A stretch of DNA of 64,000 nt, taken from contig CP144833.1 in NCBI GenBank assembly GCA_036689465.1, forward strand, positions 163,093 to 227,092. Reading direction: 5' to 3'. Source of the DNA: Candidatus Stammera capleta (GTDB lineage: Bacteria > Pseudomonadota > Gammaproteobacteria > Enterobacterales > Enterobacteriaceae). Of this stretch, positions 7,191 to 63,461 are shown in pieces. The notes beneath the pieces were generated by a model. The model was given only the letters and a program-made list of their open reading frames with translations. It ran no database searches and was not told the DNA's origin. Made by a program: the position numbers and the translations under genes. Numbering within the stretch: position 1 is the first letter of the stretch; the number at the start of each line of letters is the position of its first letter.

Positions 7191-9611
7191 TTATATATCT
7201 ATATTAGATGTAATAACAAAATTATCTTCAATAAACTTTTTTCTTAATTTAATATTATCACCCATTAAAATTTTAAATAAATTATCAGTTTTATCATTAT
7301 TATTAATAGTAATTTTAGATAATATTCTTTTTTCAGGATTCATAGTAGATTCTCATAATTGAATAGGATTCATTTCTCCTAATCCTTTATAACGTTGTAT
7401 TAATATTTTTTTTTTATCTTTTTCTAAAATATAATTTATTAAAGAACCTAAATTAAAAAAATTTTTTTTTTTACCATTTACAATAATATATTTTATATAA
7501 AATTCATTAAAAAATGATATTTTTTTACCTAATTTCAAAAAAGAAAAATAATTATTTTGTAAAAAAAAATTATTAACACAAATAGTTTCTTTATTAAAAT
7601 TATGTAAATAAAAAAACTTTATTTTTAAAAAAATATTTTTATCAAAAACTAATTTAAAAAATATTTTTTTCCTAAAAATAGAATCATCTTTATTTAAAAA
7701 AACAATAAAATTATTAAGTCATTTATTTAAATTAACTATTGAAAAATCAGATATTTTTTTAAAAAACATAAGTTTATTTAAAATAAAATACGATAAATTA
7801 TTCTTATATTTAAATAAATAATTCAATATATTTATATATTTGTAAGATAAATGAATTAACATTTTATTATCTAATAAAATAGAATTATCATATTTATATA
7901 ACTCAATATCTTTAAAAGATAAATTAATTTTATATTTTATAAGATCACAATAATTTTTAATATATAATTCTTTTTTACCTTCATTAATTTTATATAAAGG
8001 AGGACGAGCAATATATAAATAACCTTCTTTTATTAAAGAAGGCATATATCTATAAAAAAAAGTTAATAACAAAGTACGTATATGAGCACCATCTACATCT
8101 GCATCAGTCATAATTATTATATTATGATATCTCAATTTATTTAAATTAAAATTCTTATTACCAATACCACATCCTAAAACTGAAACCAAAATATTTATTT
8201 CTTTAGAAGATAAAATTTTTTCTCAATTAGTTTTCTCAACATTAATAATTTTACCCTTTAAAGGTAAAACAGCTTGATTAACACGATTCCTACCTTGTTT
8301 AGCAGATCCTCCTGCAGAATCTCCTTCAACTAGAAAAATCTCAGAATAAGCGGGATTTTTTTCCTGACAATCAGCCAATTTACTAGCTGTAATATTTAAA
8401 TCTAAAATATTTTTTTTTCTTGATAATTCTCGAGATCTTTTAATCGATTCCCTTATATTATAAGAATTTATTATTTTATTAATAATTAATTTTGCATCAT
8501 GATTATGATTTATTAAAAAAAAAAACAAATTTTTATTAACTAATGATTCAACTACATATTTTACTTCTGAAGATACTAACTTTCCTTTAGTTTGAGAAGA
8601 AAATTTTGGATCAAACATTTTTATATTAATAATAGCAAACAATCCTACTCTAGTATCTTCACCTATCACATTAATTTTTTTTTTTGTACTATATTTTTTT
8701 TTATCTATATAAATATTGATACTACGAGTGATAGCAGATTTAAAACCTATTAAATGAGTTCCACCATCTACCTGAGGAATATTATTAGTAAAACATAAAA
8801 TTTTATTTTCTGTAGTATTTATCCATTGACATACTATTTCTAAATAAATATTTTTTTTTTTTTTTTTAAGAAAAAAAATATTTTTATGAAGTATATTTTT
8901 GTCTTTTATTAAATAAGATAAAAAAGATTTTATACCACCATAATTTATAAACTTATTTATATAATCAATTCTATTATCAATTAATTTAATATATAAACCA
9001 GAATTTAAAAAAGATAATTCATTTAATCTATTAAATATAATATTTAATTTAAATTGATTAAAATTTAAAAAAATTTTTTTATCAGGCCAAAATCTTATAT
9101 AAGTTCCGCTAATATTAGTCTTACCAATAACTTTAATATTTTTTTGGGGAAATCCAAATTTATAAATTTGATAATAAATTTTATTATCTCTATATATTTT
9201 TAATTCTAATTTTTCCGATAATGCATTTACAACTGAAATACCCACACCATGCAATCCACCAGAAAATTTATATGAACTATTATCAAACTTACTACCAGAA
9301 TGTAGTACAGTCATAATTAATTCAGCACTAGATATATTAGTATCACTATGTATATCTGTAGGTATACCTCTACCATCATCAAAAATTGATACAGAATTAT
9401 CTTTATATAAGGTTACAAAAATTTTTTTACAAAAACCGGCTAAACATTCATCTATAGAATTATCTATTACTTCAAAAACCATATGATGTAAACCTGTACC
9501 ATCACTAGTATCACCAATATACATACCAGGACGTTTACGAACAGCCTCTAAACCTTTTAAAATTTTAATACTTGAAGAATTATAAAAATTAGATAACATA
9601 TTTATACTCAT
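7191..9611 (-). CDS. gyrB: DNA gyrase subunit B
   Basis: ORFs 8223..9611, 7719..8189 and 7353..7538 are all in one frame relative to TAA at 7191 (807 codons). The ends are [16 protein letters not shown].. and ..NIDI*. It contains an in-frame A17 tract (sense) at 8851..8867. Confidence 0.97.
8851..8867 (-). repeat. A17 (sense) homopolymer inside gyrB, in frame
   Basis: The ORF-track translation ..[11 protein letters not shown].. fixes the tract at 17 nt. Confidence 0.85.
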
Positions 9612-9628
9612 TTAAAATTAAATATTAT

Positions 9629-10762
9629 TTATAATTGTATTGGCATAATCATATAATTAACATATTTATCATTAATGTTTAAAATTTTTACAATAGAATT
9701 ATTATCTTTAAAATAAATACGTATTTGAGATGAATTTTTTATAGTATTCAAAATATCTAAAATAAACTTAATATTTAAATTTAAATTAATATTACTACCT
9801 GAATATTCAATTAATATTTTTTCTTTTGTTTCATTATTATTAGAATCATCAGAAGATAATATAAGACAATTATTCTTAAAAAATAAACAAACATAATTAG
9901 AAATATTATTACTTATAATTAAAGAACGTAATAAAGCATTTTTAAATATTATTAAATCTAAATCTACACAAAAATAATCTTCAAAAGACAAAAAAATATT
10001 AGAATAATCTGGGAAAGAACCATTTATTAAACTTCCATAAATAACATAATTATTAAAAATTATTCTAATCATATTAAAATTTACTTCAAAAATAACTTCT
10101 TTATCATCTAAAAAATCAAAAAATTTAAATAATTCTACCACTAATTTTTTAGAAATTATTAAAGAAAAATTTTTTTTTTTACTTAATAATTTAAAATATT
10201 TTATAGACAATTTATAAATAGAAATACGATAACTATCTGTAGTTACAAAAAAAAAAAAACCATTCTTATATTCTATTAACATACCATTTAAATAATAATA
10301 TATATCTTGATCGCCCATAGAAAAATGTATTGAAAATATTATTTTTTTTAAAATATAACTAGAAATAGAAAATTTATTACAAAAAGAAAAATTTTTATTT
10401 ATAATAGGAAACTGTAATACAGGTAAAGTATTTAATAAAGAAATACTATTTAAACAACATAATCTTAATCTATTTTTATACAAATTTAAAAAAATTATAT
10501 CTTCATTTAAATAAGTACGAAATAATTCATATAAATTGCGCAAATTAACAGTAAAAGAACCAATAGAAAAAATATTTTTTTTTGATAATTTTATTTTACA
10601 ATTAATTTCTATATCTAAATCAGTAACTTTTAAACTTAGAGCGTTAAAATCTATTTTAACTAAAACATATGTCAAAATAATATTTTTATTAGAAATATTA
10701 ATATATGTATTTAACTTACTTAAAATATTAAATATTTTTTTTTTTTTTATAAAGAATTTCAT
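9629..10762 (-). CDS. dnaN: DNA polymerase III beta sliding clamp
   Basis: The intact 377-aa ORF lies directly upstream of gyrB and ends ..MIMPIQL (E. coli ..MPMRL). Confidence 0.9.
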   Translation of the reverse strand: MKFFIKKKKIFNILSKLNTYINISNKNIILTYVLVKIDFNALSLKVTDLDIEINCKIKLSKKNIFSIGSFTVNLRNLYELFRTYLNEDIIFLNLYKNRLRLCCLNSISLLNTLPVLQFPIINKNFSFCNKFSISSYILKKIIFSIHFSMGDQDIYYYLNGMLIEYKNGFFFFVTTDSYRISIYKLSIKYFKLLSKKKNFSLIISKKLVVELFKFFDFLDDKEVIFEVNFNMIRIIFNNYVIYGSLINGSFPDYSNIFLSFEDYFCVDLDLIIFKNALLRSLIISNNISNYVCLFFKNNCLILSSDDSNNNETKEKILIEYSGSNINLNLNIKFILDILNTIKNSSQIRIYFKDNNSIVKILNINDKYVNYMIMPIQL

Positions 10763-11673
10763 ATTTAGATAACAAAATTAATACAATTAAATTATTAAAA
10801 TTAACAACATTACTAGTAAAAATATTATTTTTATTATCTTTTACAAAAATATATTCTATATATTAAAAACTTAATTTAAATAAACTATAACAAATTAATT
10901 TTTACTAATAAATAAATATATAACTAAGAAAATATAAAATTAATAAATATATTTAAATATAAAGAATATAAAAATATAATTCTATAAAAATTAAATATTT
11001 TCTTATATATAAAATATATTTTAATATATTAAATTAATCTATTTTTTTTTAGAAAGTATATAATATATCTTTTACAAAATCAATATTTATATTATTTCCA
11101 TAATTTAAATACTTTAAATATATAAATAAATTTATATAATTATTATAAAACAAAATATATTATTTTATTAAAATTATAAATATAATATATATTTTTTTAA
11201 AAAAAGATAAAATTTATACTTTTAATTTTTTAAAAAATATACTTAATATTTTAATTATTATTAATATTTTTATTTAAATTTTAAATACATTTATTAAATA
11301 TAAATAATAATTTAATATTAAATTTTATTTAATTATTAAATATATAAATATTACCAACAGTATTTATTAAAATAAAAAATCATAAAAATAAAATTAATAA
11401 ATAAATTAACAAATTTATCATAAAAATTTTTTTAATAATTATTAAATATATAATAAAAAAATATAATATTAATTATATATAAAATTAAATAAATATTATC
11501 AATAAAAATATATAAATTTAAACCATATATTTATTTTAAATAAACTATATTTAAATTTATTAAAATATTTTATCTATAGATTTACTAATGAAATAAAACT
11601 TACATTTAATATAAATAAATATAATAGTATAATTATATATAAATAATATTAATTACGAATAAAAATAAAATAT
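10763..11673. other. 0.9-kb non-coding, almost pure A/T spacer in the slot normally occupied by dnaA; candidate replication-origin region
   Basis: There is no ORF and very few G or C. It lies between divergent dnaN (-) and rpmH (+), where Enterobacterales carry dnaA and its promoter. Confidence 0.5.
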
Positions 11674-11808
11674 ATGAAAAGAACATATCAACCATCAAAA
11701 ATAAAAAAAAAACGTACTCATGGATTTAAAAAAAGAATGTCAACAAAAAATGGTAGAAAAATATTATCATATAGAAGAAAAAAAAAAAGAAAAAAAATAT
11801 CTATATAA
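11674..11808 (+). CDS. rpmH: 50S ribosomal protein L34
   Basis: [44 protein letters not shown] (44 aa). Confidence 0.95.
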
Positions 11809-11830
11809 AAAATTTTCTTTACCTAAATTA

Positions 11831-12130
11831 ATGAAAATAAAAATTAAAAAAATATATATATATAAAAATAAAATATATAATTTTTTATCAATTAAAAGTA
11901 AAATCAATAAATTACATTATCCTAGAATAGGAATAATAATTCCTAAAAAAAAAATTAAATATGCAGTACAAAGAAATAAAATAAGAAGAATAATACATGA
12001 AACATTTCGTTTACAACAACATAAAATTAAAAATAATGACTATTTATTAATAATTAAAAAATATATTCTAAATATTAAAAAAAAATTTTTATTTTTAATT
12101 GAAAAAGTATGAAAAAAATATTACAAATAA
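11831..12130 (+). CDS. rnpA: RNase P protein component (start uncertain: 11831, or 11720/11750 inside rpmH)
   Basis: The ORF 11720..12112 frame continues through one TGA to TAA at 12128..12130. HYPRIGIIIPKKKIKYAVQRNKIRRIIHETFRLQQHKI is the RnpA core. Confidence 0.85.
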
Positions 12131-16332: not shown

Positions 16333-16726
16333 ATATTATATTACACATAACAAGTTCTTTAAATTTTATTTTAAACAAATAAATTTAATACTAAAATAGC
16401 ATTTTAAAATAAAAAACTAATAATTTCAAAATATTATTTAATTTTCATTATCTAAAATATTATAGATATAATTTTTATAAAAAATAACATATAAAAATTA
16501 TTTAAATTAAATACAAAAATTAATTTTATTCTTATAAATATAAGAATATTTTTTAAAAAAAATAAACATTTAAAATACTTAAATTAATATTAATACACAA
16601 AAAAAATAAAATTAACAATACTATATATATTTAAAAAGTTAATAATGAAAAAAAATAAAATTAAATATATAATAACATATAAATGTATTAACTCAAAAAC
16701 ATAAAATTTAACTTATAAATAATAAA

Positions 16727-19092: not shown

Positions 19093-19844
19093 ATGTATAT
19101 ATTAAAAATTAAAAAACTACAAGTTAAAATAAAAAAAAAATATATTCTTAATAATATAAATTTAAAAATAAAATACGGAGAAACTCATGTACTTATTGGA
19201 CCAAACGGTTCAGGAAAAAGCAGTTTATCTTTAGTTTTAGCAGGTCATAAAAAATACGAAATAATTAAAGGAAAAATATTTTTAGATAATATAAATATTA
19301 ATAAATTAACTATAGATAAAAGATCTAAAAAAGGATTATTTATATCATTACAAAATAGTATAGAAATACCAGGATTAAATAATCAATATTTTTTATTTCA
19401 AGCTTATAACTCTAAAAGAATTTATAATAAAAAAAAAGAAATAAATCTAATAAAATTCAAAAAAAAAATATTTAAATATTTAAAAAAAATAAATTTTTCT
19501 AAAAAATTTTTACAAAGATCTCTTAATGTAGGTTTTTCAGGGGGGGAAAAAAAAAAGAATGACATATTACAAATATTAATTTTAAAACCTAAATTAATTA
19601 TATTAGATGAAATAGATTCAGGATTAGATGTTAATACATTTCAAAAAATTATTAAAATAATCAATAAATTAAAAAAAAAAAAAAAAGTTTTCTAATAATA
19701 ACTCATAATTTTAAAATATTTGATTATATTAAAATTAATAAAGTACATATTTTAAATAAAGGAGAAATAATTGCATCAGGAAAAAAAAATATTATTAAAA
19801 TAGTTAAAAAAAAGGGTTACAAATATTTCAAAAAACAAAAATAA
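19093..19844 (+). CDS. sufC: Fe-S cluster assembly ATPase SufC, interrupted by a frameshift inside an A16 tract
   Basis: ORF 19093..19695 carries Walker A GPNGSGKSS, signature FSGGEKKK and Walker B LIILDEIDSGLD, then stops (..KKKKKVF*). The H-loop and C-terminus, SFLIITHNFKIFDYIKINKVHILNKGEIIASG..KKKGYKYF, follow in the other frame from 19686 to TAA at 19842..19844. Confidence 0.85.
19671..19686 (+). repeat. A16 homopolymer at the sufC frame break
   Basis: TTA followed by five AAA codons in the ORF-track translation fixes the run at 16 A. One extra A would restore KKKKKSFLIITHN. Confidence 0.85.
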
Positions 19845-25691: not shown

Positions 25692-27425
25692 ATGAAAAGA
25701 ATGTTGATAAACGCTACACAAAAAGAAGAATTACGTATAGCATTAGTAGATGGACAAAAATTATATGATTTAAATATAGAAAACACTAAATATACACAAA
25801 AAAAATTGAATATTTATAAAGGAAAAATTACCCGAATAGAACTTAGTTTAGAAGCGGTATTTATAAATTATGGATCAAAAAAAAATGGTTTTTTACCAAT
25901 AAAAGAAATATCAGAAAAATATTTAAATAAAAAAGAAAAAAATATTAAAAATGCATTATATGAAGGAAAAAAAATAATAGTTCAAATACGCAAAGAAGAA
26001 AGAGAAAATAAAGGAGCAGTATTAACAACATTTATTAGTTTAGTAGGTAGTAATATAATACTTTTACCAGATAATCCTAAATCTAGCGGTATATCAAGAA
26101 AAATAGAGGGTAAAGAAAGAAATAAAATAAAATCCAAATTAAAAAAAATACATTTACCTAAAAATATGGGTTTAATAATTAGAACATCAGGTATTGATAA
26201 ATCTCTTGAAAAACTTAAATCTGATATAGAATTAAAATTAAAACACTGAGAATATATTAAAAAAATAGCAAAAAAAAAACAAGCTCCTTCATTAATATAT
26301 CAAGAAAATAATATACTCATTCGTACATTTAGAGATTATTTACATAACGATATAAATGAAATTATAATAGATAATTATAAAATTTATAAATTAGCTATAA
26401 ATAAAATATATGAATTAAAAAGAAATAATTTTATAAAAAAAATAAAATTTTATAAAAATAATATTCCTTTATTTATATATTTTAAAATAGAAACACAAAT
26501 AGAATCAGCTTTTAAAAGAAAATTAAGATTACCTTCAGGAGGATCAATAACCATTGATATTACAGAAGCATTAACATCTATAGATATAAATTCATCAAAA
26601 TCAACAAAAAATAAAGATATAGAAAATACAGCTTTTAATACTAATTTAGAAGCTACTGATGAAATAGCTAGACAATTAAGATTAAGAGATGTAGGAGGGT
26701 TGATAGTTATAGATTTTATAGATATGTCTATATTACAAAATCAAAAAATTATAGAATATAAATTAAAAAAAAATATTAAAAATGATAGAGCTAAAATCCA
26801 AATAGGATATATTTCTAAATTTGGTTTATTAGAAATGTCTAGACAAAGACTAAATCCTTCTCTTAAAGAATCCAGTTATTATATGTGCCCTAGATGTTGT
26901 GGTTCTGGTAATATTAGAGATAACGAATCATTATCATTATCTATATTAAGAATTATCGAAGAAGAATCTCTTAAAAAAAATATTAAAAAAATACATGCTA
27001 TAGTTCCAATAAATATAGCATCATATTTATTAAATAAAAAAAGAGATCATTTATATAATATAGAAAAAAAAAAAAAAAAAAAAATTAAAATTATAATTAT
27101 ACCTAACGAAGAAATAGAAACACCTAACTATTCCATAATAAAAATAAAAAAAAATAAAGAAAAAAAAAAATACAAAAAAAAAAAAATAAATAATATAAAA
27201 AAAAATAATTATTATAAATATAAAAAAATAAACAATTATATAACAGAAAATAAAAAAAATAATAATTTCTTAAATAAAATTAAAAATAAAATTTATGAAA
27301 AAATAAATATTTTCATTAACAAAATTAAAAAAAACATATTTCAAGAAAGAATAAATTATCAAAATGATAATGAATATAAAGATAATAAAAGAAAAAATCT
27401 TAAAAAAATACTTGAAACAATATAA
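25692..27425 (+). CDS. rne: ribonuclease E (catalytic N-terminal half plus Lys/Asn-rich tail)
   Basis: ORFs 25692..26249 and 26700..27425 are in frame (578 codons). MKRMLINATQKEELRIALVDGQKLYDL, IVIDFIDM and the Zn-link CPRCCGSG are present. It contains an in-frame A21 tract. Confidence 0.93.
27064..27084 (+). repeat. A21 homopolymer inside rne, in frame
   Basis: The ORF-track translation ..NIEKKKKKKIKII.. fixes the tract at 21 nt. Confidence 0.85.
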
Positions 27426-53978: not shown

Positions 53979-54767
53979 ATGTTTAAAAAAAAAACTGTCA
54001 TTTTTTTAGATTCTGGTGTAGGTGGATTATCTATTTTAAAAAGCATATATAAATATTTAAAAAATATAAAAATAATTTATTTCATGGATGACTTAAAATT
54101 TCCTTACGGAAATAAAAATTATTTATATATTACAAAAAGAATACATAAAATTATTAAATATTTAAATAAAATTTATCATATTTATACATTAATACTAGCA
54201 TGTAATACTGCTACTATAATTAGTATAAATTATTTAAAAAAAAAATTTAAATTTCCTATTATAGGTACATTTCCTTCTATTAAGAAATCTATTCACAAAA
54301 CAAAAAAAAAAATAATTTTATTAATAGGAACATATTTAACTATTAATTCTTGATATATAAAAAATTTAATTAAAAATAATTCACCTAAAAATATTAAAAT
54401 TATTAAAAAATATTCATCAGAATTAGTATATTTAGCAGAATTAAAAATAAAAAAAAATAAAATAAATTTAAATAAAATAAAAAATATTTTTAAAAAAGAA
54501 AAAAAAATTAAAAATTTAGATACTATTATAATAGGATGTACTCATTATAACTTTTTAACAAAAGAAATAAAAAAAGTTTTTCATAAAAAAATATATCTTA
54601 TAAAAAATTTAATAAAAATTAAAAAAAAATGTTTTGATAATATAAAAAAAAAAAAAAAAAAAAAAAAATATTTTTTTTATAAAAAAAAAAAAAAAAATAA
54701 AAATAACTTTATGAAAAATATCAATAAAATATATAAATTTTCTATATTCAAAAAAATTAAAATTTAA
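53979..54767 (+). CDS. murI: glutamate racemase
   Basis: IFLDSGVGGLSIL, FPYGNK, LACNTA and IIGCTHY are present. The 3' end as drawn reads through the A25/T8/A17 tract in frame, and this part is not anchored by the ORF track. Confidence 0.85.
54644..54697 (+). repeat. compound homopolymer: about A25, TATTTTTTTTAT, about A17, in the 3' part of murI
   Basis: Read directly from lines 54601-54720. Run lengths were counted by hand. Confidence 0.7.
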
Positions 54768-54776
54768 TAATTGAAA

Positions 54777-55427
54777 ATGATTAATAAAAAAAAAAATAAA
54801 AATAATAATAAGTTTAAAAATATATTAAAAATATCTATATTTTTTAGAATTATAGAAATAATAACAAAACTAAATAATACAAATATAATATATTGAAAAA
54901 TATTATACATATTTTTTATAATAAATAAATTAATAGAATACCCTTATATAATAATTACACACATTATATTAATTTATATTTATAAAAAAATATATAATAT
55001 ATCTAATATAAAAAATATTGTATTTATGTCATGTAGTATATTATTATTATCTTTAATAACTAAAGAAATTATCAAAAAAAATATTTATATTTCAAGACCA
55101 TATAAAAGTATTAATATAAAAAAACAAATTAATAAAAAAAATATACCTAAATGAATTATGGATCAATGAAAATATAAAAATAGTAGTTCCTTTCCATCAG
55201 GACATACAATATTTACAAGTTACTGAATAATGTTATTTTGAAAAAAAAAAAAAAAAAATTCAATAATAATATTATTATTAACAGTATTAACTAGTACTAG
55301 AATATTTTTATTACTACATAGAAGTCAAGAAATAATATTTAGTTTCATAATAAATAATATTTCTAAATATATAATTAATAAAACATTATTTATTTATAAA
55401 TATATTAAAACTAGATTTCAAATATAG
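54777..55427 (+). CDS. pgpB: PAP2-family lipid phosphatase (PgpB-like)
   Basis: The three PAP2 motifs are present: KKNIYISRP, FPSGHT and STRIFLLLHRSQE. W.YKNSSSFPSGHTIFTSYW aligns with E. coli PgpB W.KETGFAFPSGHTMFAASW. There are several in-frame TGAs and an in-frame A18 tract. Confidence 0.6.
55241..55258 (+). repeat. A18 homopolymer inside the PgpB-like gene (in frame as read)
   Basis: TTT TGA followed by an A run, then TTCAAT. Both flanking motif blocks are in the same frame by hand count. Confidence 0.6.
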
Positions 55428-61185: not shown

Positions 61186-61935
61186 TTATAAAGTTAATAT
61201 TTCATAACTATTATCAGTAACTAAAATAGTATGTTCGTATTGAGCAGATAGATTTCCATCTTTAGTTTTTACTGTTCAACCATCATTCATAATAATTGTA
61301 TCTTCAGATCCCATATTAATCATTGGTTCAATAGTAAATATCATACCAGTTTTAAAAAATAAATTACAATTATTTTTGTAATGCAATATATGTGGTTCTT
61401 CATGAAAATTTCTTCCTATACCATGACCACAATAATTTTTAACTACAGAATAACCCTTTTTATTAACATAATTTTGGATAATTTTACCTATATTTTTAAA
61501 TTTACCACCATTTTTAATACATTTTAAGGATAAATAAAGACTTTTTTTAGTAACTTTACATAATCTAACAGCTATATAATTAGGTTTACCAACTAAAAAC
61601 ATTTTAGATATATCTGCATAATAATTATTTTTACATATAGCTATATCAATATTTATAATATCTCCGTCTAATAATATACAATTATAAGAAGGTATACCAT
61701 GGCAAACAACATCATTAATAGAAGTACAAATAGATTTAGGAAAACCCATATATTTTAATGCTGCTGGATAAGCTTTATGATATTCTACTATACGATTATA
61801 ACAAATATCATTTATTTTACCTGTTGATATACCTGGTTTAATATATTTAGATATATAAAATAAAACTTCAGAAGCTATTTTAGCCGAAATTTTAATATTT
61901 TTAATATCTTTAAAATTTTTAATCATATGTATCAT
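61186..61935 (-). CDS. map: methionine aminopeptidase type I
   Basis: ORF 61276..61935 continues past TGA: ..DGW(TGA)TVKTKDGNLSAQYEHTILVT. VCHGIP, DI..D, GHGIG, FTIEP and EHT are the metal ligand blocks. Confidence 0.92.
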
Positions 61936-62028
61936 AAATTTATTTTTTTATTTATACCGTTATTTTTTTTATATAAAATATATATATATAATATAAAAAA
62001 ATAACACTAAAACAAAGAGGATTTTAAA

Positions 62029-62695
62029 ATGAATTTTTCTATTAAAGAAATGATTGATGTAGGAATACATTTTGGACATCAAACAAAACACTGACATCCT
62101 AAAATGAAACCTTATATTTATACTAAACATAATAAAATACATATTATCAATTTAGATAAAACAATTAAATTATTTTATATAGCATTAAAAGAACTAAAAA
62201 AAATAAATAAAAAAAAAAAAAAAAATATTATTTATAGGCACTAAAAAAGCTGCAAGTAATTTTATTAAAAATACTGCTATAAAATGCAATCAATATTTTA
62301 TTAACAATCGTTGATTAGGTGGAACATTAACTAATTGAAAAACAGTAAAAAAATCCATTAATTTTTTAAAAGAAATAGAACAACAATCTAAAAATGGACT
62401 ATTAGAAAAATTAACTAAAAAAGAAATTTTACAAAAAAAAAGATTATTAAAAAAATTAAAAAATAATTTAGATGGCATAAAAAATATGAATAATTTACCA
62501 GATGCTATATTTGTAGTAGATGCTAATTACGAAAATTTAGCAATAAAAGAAGCTCAACAATTAAAAATAAAAACATTTGCTATAATAGATACTAATACTA
62601 ATCCAGAAGGATTAGATTATATAATTCCTGGTAATGACGATTCTTCAAAATCTATAAAATGATATTGTGATAATATTATAAAATATATTAAATAA
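62029..62695 (+). CDS. rpsB: 30S ribosomal protein S2, interrupted by a frameshift inside an A17 tract
   Basis: The SD AAGAGG and ATG 62029 give [22 protein letters not shown](TGA)HPKMKPYIY...HIINLDKT in frame 1. That frame ends ..KKKKKNIIYRH* at 62242..62244. ILFIGTKKAAS...NRW LGGTLTNW K...IFVVD....AIKEA..L.I..FAI.DTN..P.....IPGNDD continues in the next frame to TAA at 62693..62695. The ORF track lists no + ORF of 60 aa or more here, which an in-frame gene would have produced. Confidence 0.85.
62209..62225 (+). repeat. A17 homopolymer at the rpsB frame break
   Basis: ATAAAT is followed by 17 A, then TATTATTTATAGGCACT. Sixteen A would give KKKKKILFIGTKKAAS, matching E. coli GKILFVGTKRAAS. 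Confidence 0.8.
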
Positions 62696-62702
62696 ATAAT
62701 TT

Positions 62703-63461
62703 ATGAATATAAAAATATTAAAAAAAATTAGAAAAATTACTTCTGTAAGTATTAAAGAATGTCTACAAGCATTAAAAAAAAATAATTTTAATTTAGAAAA
62801 ATCTATTATTTATTTAAAAAAAAAAAAATTACATAAAAATAAAAAACCCAAACAAGGAGGAATATTTGGAAAAATAAAAAATAATAAAGGTATTATAATA
62901 AAAATAAATTGCGAAACTGATTTCGCAATTAAAAATAAAAAAATAATAAATTTTGCTAAAAAAATAATTAATTATTCTCTTAAAAATAAATGTACATCTA
63001 TTGAAAAAATTAATAACGTATTTAAAAAAAAAAGAAAATATTTAATATTAAAATTTAAAGAAAATATAATAATTAAAAAAATACATTGTATAAAAGGAAA
63101 ATATTTATGTAAATACATACATAATAATAATAAAATAGGAACTATATTAAAAATAAAATTAAAAAATAAACATATAAATTTTAAAAAAATTAAAAAAATA
63201 GCTATGCATATAGCAGCTATGAATCCTAAATATATAGATAAAAGTGATATATCATACAATACAGCTAAAAAATATATAAAAAATATTATTTTAATTTCAA
63301 AACAAAAAAATAAAAAAATAATTAAAAAAAAAATAAAAGAAAAAATTAATAACTTAATATTATTAAAACAAAAATTTATTTTTAATAATAAAAAATCAAT
63401 ATCTGATTACATTAAAAAAAATAATATTAAAATAATAAATTTCTATAGACTTCAAATATAA
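62703..63461 (+). CDS. tsf: elongation factor Ts
   Basis: The intact 252-aa ORF follows rpsB. It has an N-terminal UBA-like IRKITSVSIKECLQALKKNNFNLEKSIIYLKKK and later INCETDF..KN and HIAAMNP. Confidence 0.9.
   Translation: MNIKILKKIRKITSVSIKECLQALKKNNFNLEKSIIYLKKKKLHKNKKPKQGGIFGKIKNNKGIIIKINCETDFAIKNKKIINFAKKIINYSLKNKCTSIEKINNVFKKKRKYLILKFKENIIIKKIHCIKGKYLCKYIHNNNKIGTILKIKLKNKHINFKKIKKIAMHIAAMNPKYIDKSDISYNTAKKYIKNIILISKQKNKKIIKKKIKEKINNLILLKQKFIFNNKKSISDYIKKNNIKIINFYRLQI

Follow-up and report, generated by a model that had tools for sequence, protein, structure and literature searches.

Candidatus Stammera capleta is a digestive symbiont of tortoise beetles. Here we describe a genome of this symbiont in which rpsB, the gene for ribosomal protein S2, is split into two reading frames by a run of 17 adenines (A17), in a window—the whole stretch of 64,000 nucleotides that was analysed—with a G+C content of 15.6%. 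The best explanation, we propose, is that this rpsB would be a functional and selectively maintained S2 gene, and we give about an even chance to the reading that the A17 is real and is rescued by RNA polymerase slippage or by ribosome sliding.

The rpsB gene and its A17 tract

Direct reading of the sequence places 17 consecutive A residues at positions 62209–62225, without interruption and with a T on either side. With translation table 4, frame 0 runs for 71 codons from the ATG at 62029, starting with MNFSIKEM and ending with LKKINKKKKKNIIYRH before a TAA at 62242–62244; the +1 frame, which has no stop between 62207 and its TAA (62693–62695), begins with IKKKKKILFIGTKKAAS and ends with IPGNDDSSKSIKWYCDNIIKYIK. 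The features of the locus are as follows.

62015–62021 (+): Shine–Dalgarno-like AAGAGGA before the rpsB ATG, with G62020 8 nt before A62029 (direct reading)
62029–62244 (+): rpsB frame 0, with 65 authentic S2 codons, 6 out-of-frame codons (NIIYRH) and a TAA stop
62092–62094 (+): TGA codon at the invariant Trp22 of S2 (genetic code 4)
62209–62225 (+): A17 tract encoding a Lys run; a length of 13, 16 or 19 would be in frame
62207–62695 (+): rpsB +1 frame, the remainder of S2 (KKKKK-ILFIGTKK ... IPGNDD ... KYIK), with a TAA stop at 62693–62695
62703–63461 (+): tsf (EF-Ts), which starts 7 nt past the rpsB stop

A list of open reading frames made with translation table 11 shows only pieces of 21 and 46 amino acids from rpsB, because UGA is read as tryptophan here (Trp22 is TGA).

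Both parts match the S2 model TIGR01011, the N-terminal fragment over positions 3–64 (E = 2.3e-19) and the +1-frame part over positions 59–216 (E = 1.2e-63); this two-frame S2 signal is far above chance, and it bears out an earlier note on this DNA, made from the sequence alone, which had placed the start of S2 at the ATG at 62029 and its remainder in the next frame up to 62695, followed by tsf. The central claim of that note, that rpsB is out of frame across the A17 and that A16 restores S2, also held, given that UGA is read as Trp, which this interpretation requires. Removal of one A gives a protein of 221 amino acids that matches positions 3–216 of the 225 in TIGR01011 in a single stretch, with 289 bits against a cut-off of 76.3, and its junction is gap-free in comparison with 31 relatives (KKINKKKKKILFIGTKK versus KKINQEKKKILFVGTKK). 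The A16-restored protein keeps every residue that is invariant in an alignment of 32 S2 sequences. A tract of 19 would likewise restore the frame, adding one Lys.

A full-length match over the curated cut-off places the A16-restored protein in the uS2 family (TIGR01011 / PF00318). The gene itself departs from the family in one feature, the uninterrupted reading frame, owing to the +1 offset at the A17 (62209–62225). We found no further stop or indel in rpsB, and both the Shine–Dalgarno sequence and the ATG are present; the gene has kept its expression signal. The gene order map–rpsB–tsf–pyrH is also conserved, with map at 61186–61947 (-), tsf at 62703–63461 and an amino-acid kinase (pyrH-like) open reading frame that starts at 63449, and Stammera relatives have the same map–rpsB–tsf order.

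The 71-amino-acid S2 fragment is a called protein on record for a 297,036-bp NCBI contig, on which six proteins of the window are matched exactly. As the proteins of the window, including this fragment, are found on the NCBI contig, the A17 tract sits in the deposited assembly. A second protein called for this genome as ‘S2’ (P0182) has 69 amino acids, a length that fits a start at the internal Met153 (62486–62695, +); from this length, P0182 would be the product from Met153 of rpsB. The gene therefore shows in protein databases as two small fragments (71 and 69 amino acids) and may be missed in core-genome analyses. The earlier note had named an intact second rpsB copy elsewhere in the genome as something that would refute dependence on slippage; a tblastn search with the restored S2 returned just the two known pieces, and there is no second copy in the window.

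Long homopolymers, sufC and the history of the rpsB tract

The window contains 177 A runs and 52 T runs of at least 9 nt. We screened all A/T tracts of at least 10 nt, in the window and in approximately 165 kb of loci fetched from relatives, for a change of the open frame. Gene boundaries and tails aside, only two genes in the window are broken at such tracts, rpsB (A17) and sufC (A16). None of the 10–15-nt tracts scored inside reading frames is out of frame (more than 70 in the window and around 220 in the relatives’ loci). Among coding tracts of at least 16 nt, seven are in frame and two out of frame in the window, and eight are in frame and one out of frame in the relatives’ loci. Across the window and the relatives’ approximately 165 kb, the out-of-frame state is an exception, and it occurs only in tracts of at least 16 nt. 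The overall count of 15 in-frame tracts out of 18 indicates that the assemblies usually resolve long tracts, because chance alone would put one third of them in frame; it also means that frame is still under selection, so an out-of-frame rpsB should be costly. The in-frame tracts of the window are listed here.

54644–54668 and 54681–54697 (+): A25 and A17 in the C-terminal tail of murI
27064–27084 (+): A21 in rne
55241–55258 (+): A18 in a PAP2-family gene
8851–8867 (-): T17 (A17 on the coding strand) in gyrB
14531 and 42799: the two in-frame A16 tracts, one in mnmE and one in rpmI

The reading frame of murI continues through both the A25 and the A17, and its product matches the full-length glutamate racemase model. 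In the relatives’ assemblies, A16–A19 tracts are called in frame. Genome-wide homopolymer noise was considered and rejected: the other flags raised by the screen are merely gene boundaries or tails (rpmH/rnpA, infC/rpmI, rplS/truA and the murI tail), and the assembly is therefore not riddled with frameshifts.

The second broken gene, sufC, encodes an Fe–S cluster assembly ATPase and spans 19093–19844 (+), with its H-loop and C terminus (SFLIITHNF...) in a different frame from the rest.

19093–19695 (+): sufC frame 0, with 200 codons ending in KLKKKKKVF and a stop; matches TIGR01978 over positions 1–195 only
19671–19686 (+): A16 tract in sufC; A17 (or A14) is required for frame
19686–19844 (+): downstream frame of sufC, with the H-loop and C terminus, SFLIITHNFKIF...GYKYFKKQK and a stop

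With A17, the SufC protein matches positions 1–242 of the 243 in TIGR01978 in one stretch (287 bits) and aligns gap-free with intact Stammera SufC. The 297,036-bp contig that carries the S2 fragment also has the truncated 200-amino-acid SufC (P0130) among its recorded proteins. In another Stammera genome, CP144837.1, the sufC tract is also A16 and out of frame (positions 10579–10594 of locus L013), whereas CP043991.1, with 98.1% identity to CP144837.1 across 20.6 kb, has an in-frame A17; CP145602.1 is in frame with CTC followed by A16. Other indels between CP144837.1 and CP043991.1 are intergenic or at gene ends, most of them at the 3′ end of rne in short A/T runs.

All of the closest relatives of S2 and SufC are on NCBI chromosomes of Candidatus Stammera capleta of 210–325 kb. 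The protein collection contains around 50 full-length Stammera S2 sequences, and the frameshift is found in this genome alone. The comparison of the tract in sister strains that the earlier note had suggested gives an in-frame tract in all of the other Stammera rpsB genes examined (A10–A13, A16 followed by G, or A18). The same site holds in-frame runs of A10–A13 in loci L002–L004 and L006, and the three closest genomes are all in frame, with A13 in CP144840.1, A12 in CP043991.1 and AAT CAA GAA AAA AAA AAA ATA in CP145602.1. More distant Stammera have, independently, in-frame A18 (CP144813.1 and CP144787.1) or A16 followed by G (CP144790.1). Compared with the closest relatives, the window shows CAA to AAA and GAA to AAA changes that merged the run to 16, and it also has a 17th A. 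This part of S2 is a variable loop rich in Lys that directly precedes the invariant K-I-L-F strand; gain or loss of a single Lys should therefore be harmless, and the in-frame A18 and A16-plus-G tracts of relatives mean that S2 expression already tolerates very slippery tracts there.

We compared the window with its three closest relatives by the Nei–Gojobori method. The ratio dN/dS is 0.10–0.17 downstream of the tract (codons 66–217) and 0.08–0.22 upstream of it (codons 1–60), and intact–intact pairs give 0.05–0.14; a very recent frameshift would look identical by this measure. The rpsB gene is not an old pseudogene, because the part 3′ of the tract is undecayed (dN/dS of 0.10–0.17). This leaves three states for the frameshift: unreal, recent, or neutralised in function.

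Gene loss is visible elsewhere in these genomes. In the window, dnaA is an eroded relic (10731–11129, -) in a 927-bp gap between dnaN (9629–10777) and rnpA (11705–12130); it is 43% identical to residues 319–459 of a relative’s DnaA, has several in-frame stops and has lost its N-terminal two thirds. The closest sequenced relative, CP145602.1, has an intact dnaA of 459 amino acids at the same position. The transhydrogenase genes pntAB lie between ruvX and a 2-hydroxyacid dehydrogenase gene in CP144837.1 and CP043991.1 (4638–7514 of loci L013 and L015) and are missing from that position in the window (16336–16711) and in CP145602.1. In CP144813.1, a 246-kb genome (locus L010, 2423–3883 and 6009–6832), pgk is called only as a 95-amino-acid remnant, and fbaA and pfkA are not called where the window has them, which suggests that glycolysis is eroding in that lineage.

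Explanations for the out-of-frame tract

If the A17 is real and rescued, the Lys-rich loop codons (N-K-K-K-K-K) would have turned into uninterrupted poly(A), and one A would have been gained (A16 to A17) in this lineage only. RNA polymerase would slip on the A17 and produce transcripts of mixed lengths. The frame of rpsB needs a change of -1 (A16), +2 (A19) or -4 (A13), so the in-frame classes would be A16 transcripts together with A13 and A19 transcripts, which would encode one Lys fewer or more in the variable loop. Ribosomes carrying tRNA-Lys may in addition slide on poly(A) into the +1 frame and thereby supply the shift directly. Replication slippage in a polyploid and probably repair-poor symbiont population could also leave minority in-frame copies of the genome that may contribute.

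Several observations count in favour of a real A17. Seven other very long tracts (16–25 nt) are called accurately in the same assembly. The ongoing erosion seen in this lineage, of which the dnaA relic is an instance, also points this way, and sufC, being in the same state, would fit a rescue of rpsB. The otherwise intact gene, its low dN/dS, the long in-frame tracts of other Stammera at this site, the confinement of out-of-frame states to tracts of at least 16 nt and the endosymbiont precedents described below are further points in favour. On the opposite side, a break in this genome alone, with around 50 Stammera S2 proteins intact, looks like the pattern of an error. The anatomy of the gene, its lack of decay, the restriction of the break to this lineage and a second gene in the same condition are seen directly, whereas a modal length of A17 in the genome and a supply of S2 through slippage are inferred, at about even odds. 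The fuller proposition, that A17 is the true predominant allele and that the strain makes all of its S2 and SufC through non-templated correction at A tracts of at least 16 nt, we place a little under even.

The alternative is that the tract length was miscalled by sequencing or assembly: the true tract would be A16 (or A19), rpsB would be an ordinary gene and its expression would be normal. We consider this a serious but tentative reading, with a probability somewhat short of one half. The only break in rpsB falls exactly inside a 17-nt homopolymer, and its close relatives have intact copies, which is the signature of such artefacts; all other Stammera S2 genes are intact and there is no sign of relaxed selection on rpsB. 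Apart from rpsB, breaks were seen in sufC only, here and in CP144837.1; these too fall at tracts of at least 16 nt, and sufC is in frame in the 98.1%-identical genome (CP043991.1 versus CP144837.1). Related Stammera assemblies come from PCR-amplified Illumina libraries, for which a homopolymer of 16 or 17 nt is at the edge of resolution. The paper on related Stammera genomes, which may not cover this one, describes NEBNext Ultra II libraries, MEGAHIT assembly and curation. In surveys of essential genes, many frameshifts at homopolymers have been put down to read errors where the gene is intact in close relatives (PMC6403173).

A miscall has to be set against the seven other coding tracts of 16–25 nt that are in frame in the same assembly and the A16–A19 tracts that are in frame in relatives. 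It would also need an over-call by one (from A16) or an under-call by two (from A19). PCR and polymerase stutter mostly shortens A runs, so either error would be atypical; an under-call by one would mean A18, which is likewise out of frame. Furthermore, the paper on related genomes reports that local assembly errors were removed using reads, although it may not cover this genome. No independent (Logan) assembly of the strain is on record, and the only source of the window’s proteins is NCBI.

Recent true inactivation, by which rpsB has just become a pseudogene and S2 is being lost or comes from a second copy or from the host, is very improbable. A very recent frameshift would leave dN/dS untouched, and other core genes, such as dnaA, are eroding in this lineage. 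However, rpsB is essential in E. coli, it is intact in all other Stammera seen, its dN/dS is around 0.1 and the window holds no second rpsB. Stammera is described as extracellular in beetle foregut organs, so import of a host protein would be unlikely.

The earlier note had allowed for three possibilities. Two of these, a miscall and slippage or frameshifting, stay live; the third, that S2 is made in two pieces, falls, and we regard it as barely credible. In that case a 71-amino-acid N-terminal fragment and a separately initiated C-terminal fragment would assemble on the ribosome. Both fragments are open, and the gene caller gave pieces of 71 and 69 amino acids, but the +1 frame has no ATG, GTG or TTG from 62207 until Met153 (62486), and there is no Shine–Dalgarno sequence or ribosome-binding site inside the A tract. 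A start at Met153 would lose residues 66–152, including the invariant ILF-GTK and RWLGG-LTNW motifs; moreover, no relative has a split rpsB, and the break falls directly before the invariant K-I-L-F strand. Reinitiation was rejected along with this reading, as neither the frame-0 stop nor the tract has a start codon nearby.

A programmed, regulatory ribosomal frameshift of the prfB/dnaX type is just as implausible: although tRNA-Lys can re-pair in whichever frame on a run of poly(A) (PMC4363877), the shift site is not conserved, and all relatives are in frame there. Folding of the 95 nt downstream (62226–62320) was no better than that of shuffled sequences (z = 0.51), giving no sign of a stimulatory RNA structure, and a search of 61700–62800 returned no Rfam match. 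Frame 0 also contains a rare AGG codon (UAU-AGG, 62236–62241). A +1 shift there, which would yield a normal-length S2 with NIIY replacing ILFI, was also rejected, because tRNA-Tyr could not re-pair in the +1 frame and the invariant I-L-F would be lost.

Precedents and implications

Rescue of frameshifted genes by slippage is, as the earlier note had stated, documented for endosymbionts: PMC5009743 gives, in summarising Tamas et al. (2008), 12–50% of transcripts as corrected at poly(A) runs in frameshifted genes of Buchnera and Blochmannia. In Blochmannia vafer, frameshifts have been reported in dnaX, dnaG and pth, which are essential in E. coli (PMC3017870), and the same source quotes approximately 30% full-length transcripts for such genes. 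Stammera resembles these cases in being an extremely AT-rich, vertically inherited insect symbiont, with the break in an otherwise intact and constrained gene. The lesion is likewise a single-base indel in a long A run, and the sequence downstream of the frameshift is not decaying any faster, as would equally be seen after a very recent event. In both settings, genes that E. coli cannot do without are among those hit.

There are also differences. The rpsB tract is 17 nt long compared with up to around 12–13 nt in Buchnera and Blochmannia, and it lies in a core ribosomal protein gene. Unlike some of the Blochmannia cases, the rpsB frameshift is not conserved between strains, as every other Stammera rpsB examined is in frame. 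Members of this kind, for which rpsB is a candidate, are defined by a verified genomic tract length, a mixed mRNA pool that includes in-frame classes and the detection of full-length protein. A transcriptome study of Buchnera found that homopolymer changes were mostly +1 insertions and that no frames were restored (PMC5574713), which is a caution for slippage rescue, although tracts of 17 nt were not at issue there.

At the level of translation, iterated AAA codons make ribosomes slide and lose frame (Koutmou et al. 2015, PMC4363877). The rpsB tract has the same uninterrupted AAA run, on which tRNA-Lys re-pairs in any frame, and this could give a +1 shift. That work concerns a fidelity problem in E. 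coli reporters rather than a route to an essential protein, and sliding may, by analogy, play a part in rpsB. The locus also resembles the artefacts described in PMC6403173 (groEL, rpoB and polA), in which a polynucleotide tract breaks a single essential gene that close relatives have intact; it differs from them in that seven other coding tracts of 16–25 nt are in frame and that the error needed (+1) is atypical. With the programmed frameshifts of prfB and dnaX it shares the need for a frame change at a slippery site to make the full-length protein. Unlike those genes, it shows no conservation, no stimulatory Shine–Dalgarno sequence or structure and no evident regulatory logic, and rpsB is not a member of this class.

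We found no paper on frameshifts, slippage or homopolymers in the Stammera literature. The earlier note overstated the novelty of a core ribosomal protein that depends on slippage, given the dnaX, dnaG and pth precedents in Blochmannia vafer (PMC3017870). Because these essential-gene precedents exist, the ribosomal-protein case is at best a further example of a rescue that has already been described, and not a new principle.

If the tract was miscalled, it would be wrong to count rpsB and sufC in these assemblies as pseudogenes or to leave them out of the core genome, and tracts of at least 16 nt in Stammera assemblies need verification at the level of reads. If the A17 is real, rpsB offers a locus for measuring frame loss at very long A tracts in a genome of 15% G+C, with the in-frame A18 and A10–A13 alleles of sister strains as natural controls. 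Slippage rescue would then reach beyond cell-wall, biosynthetic and replication genes to a core ribosomal protein with high expression, and S2 would be the first such protein for which a dependence on slippage, by polymerase or ribosome, has been shown. Such a dependence would suggest that tracts above around 16 nt are slippery enough for out-of-frame genomes to persist, even in the most constrained genes.
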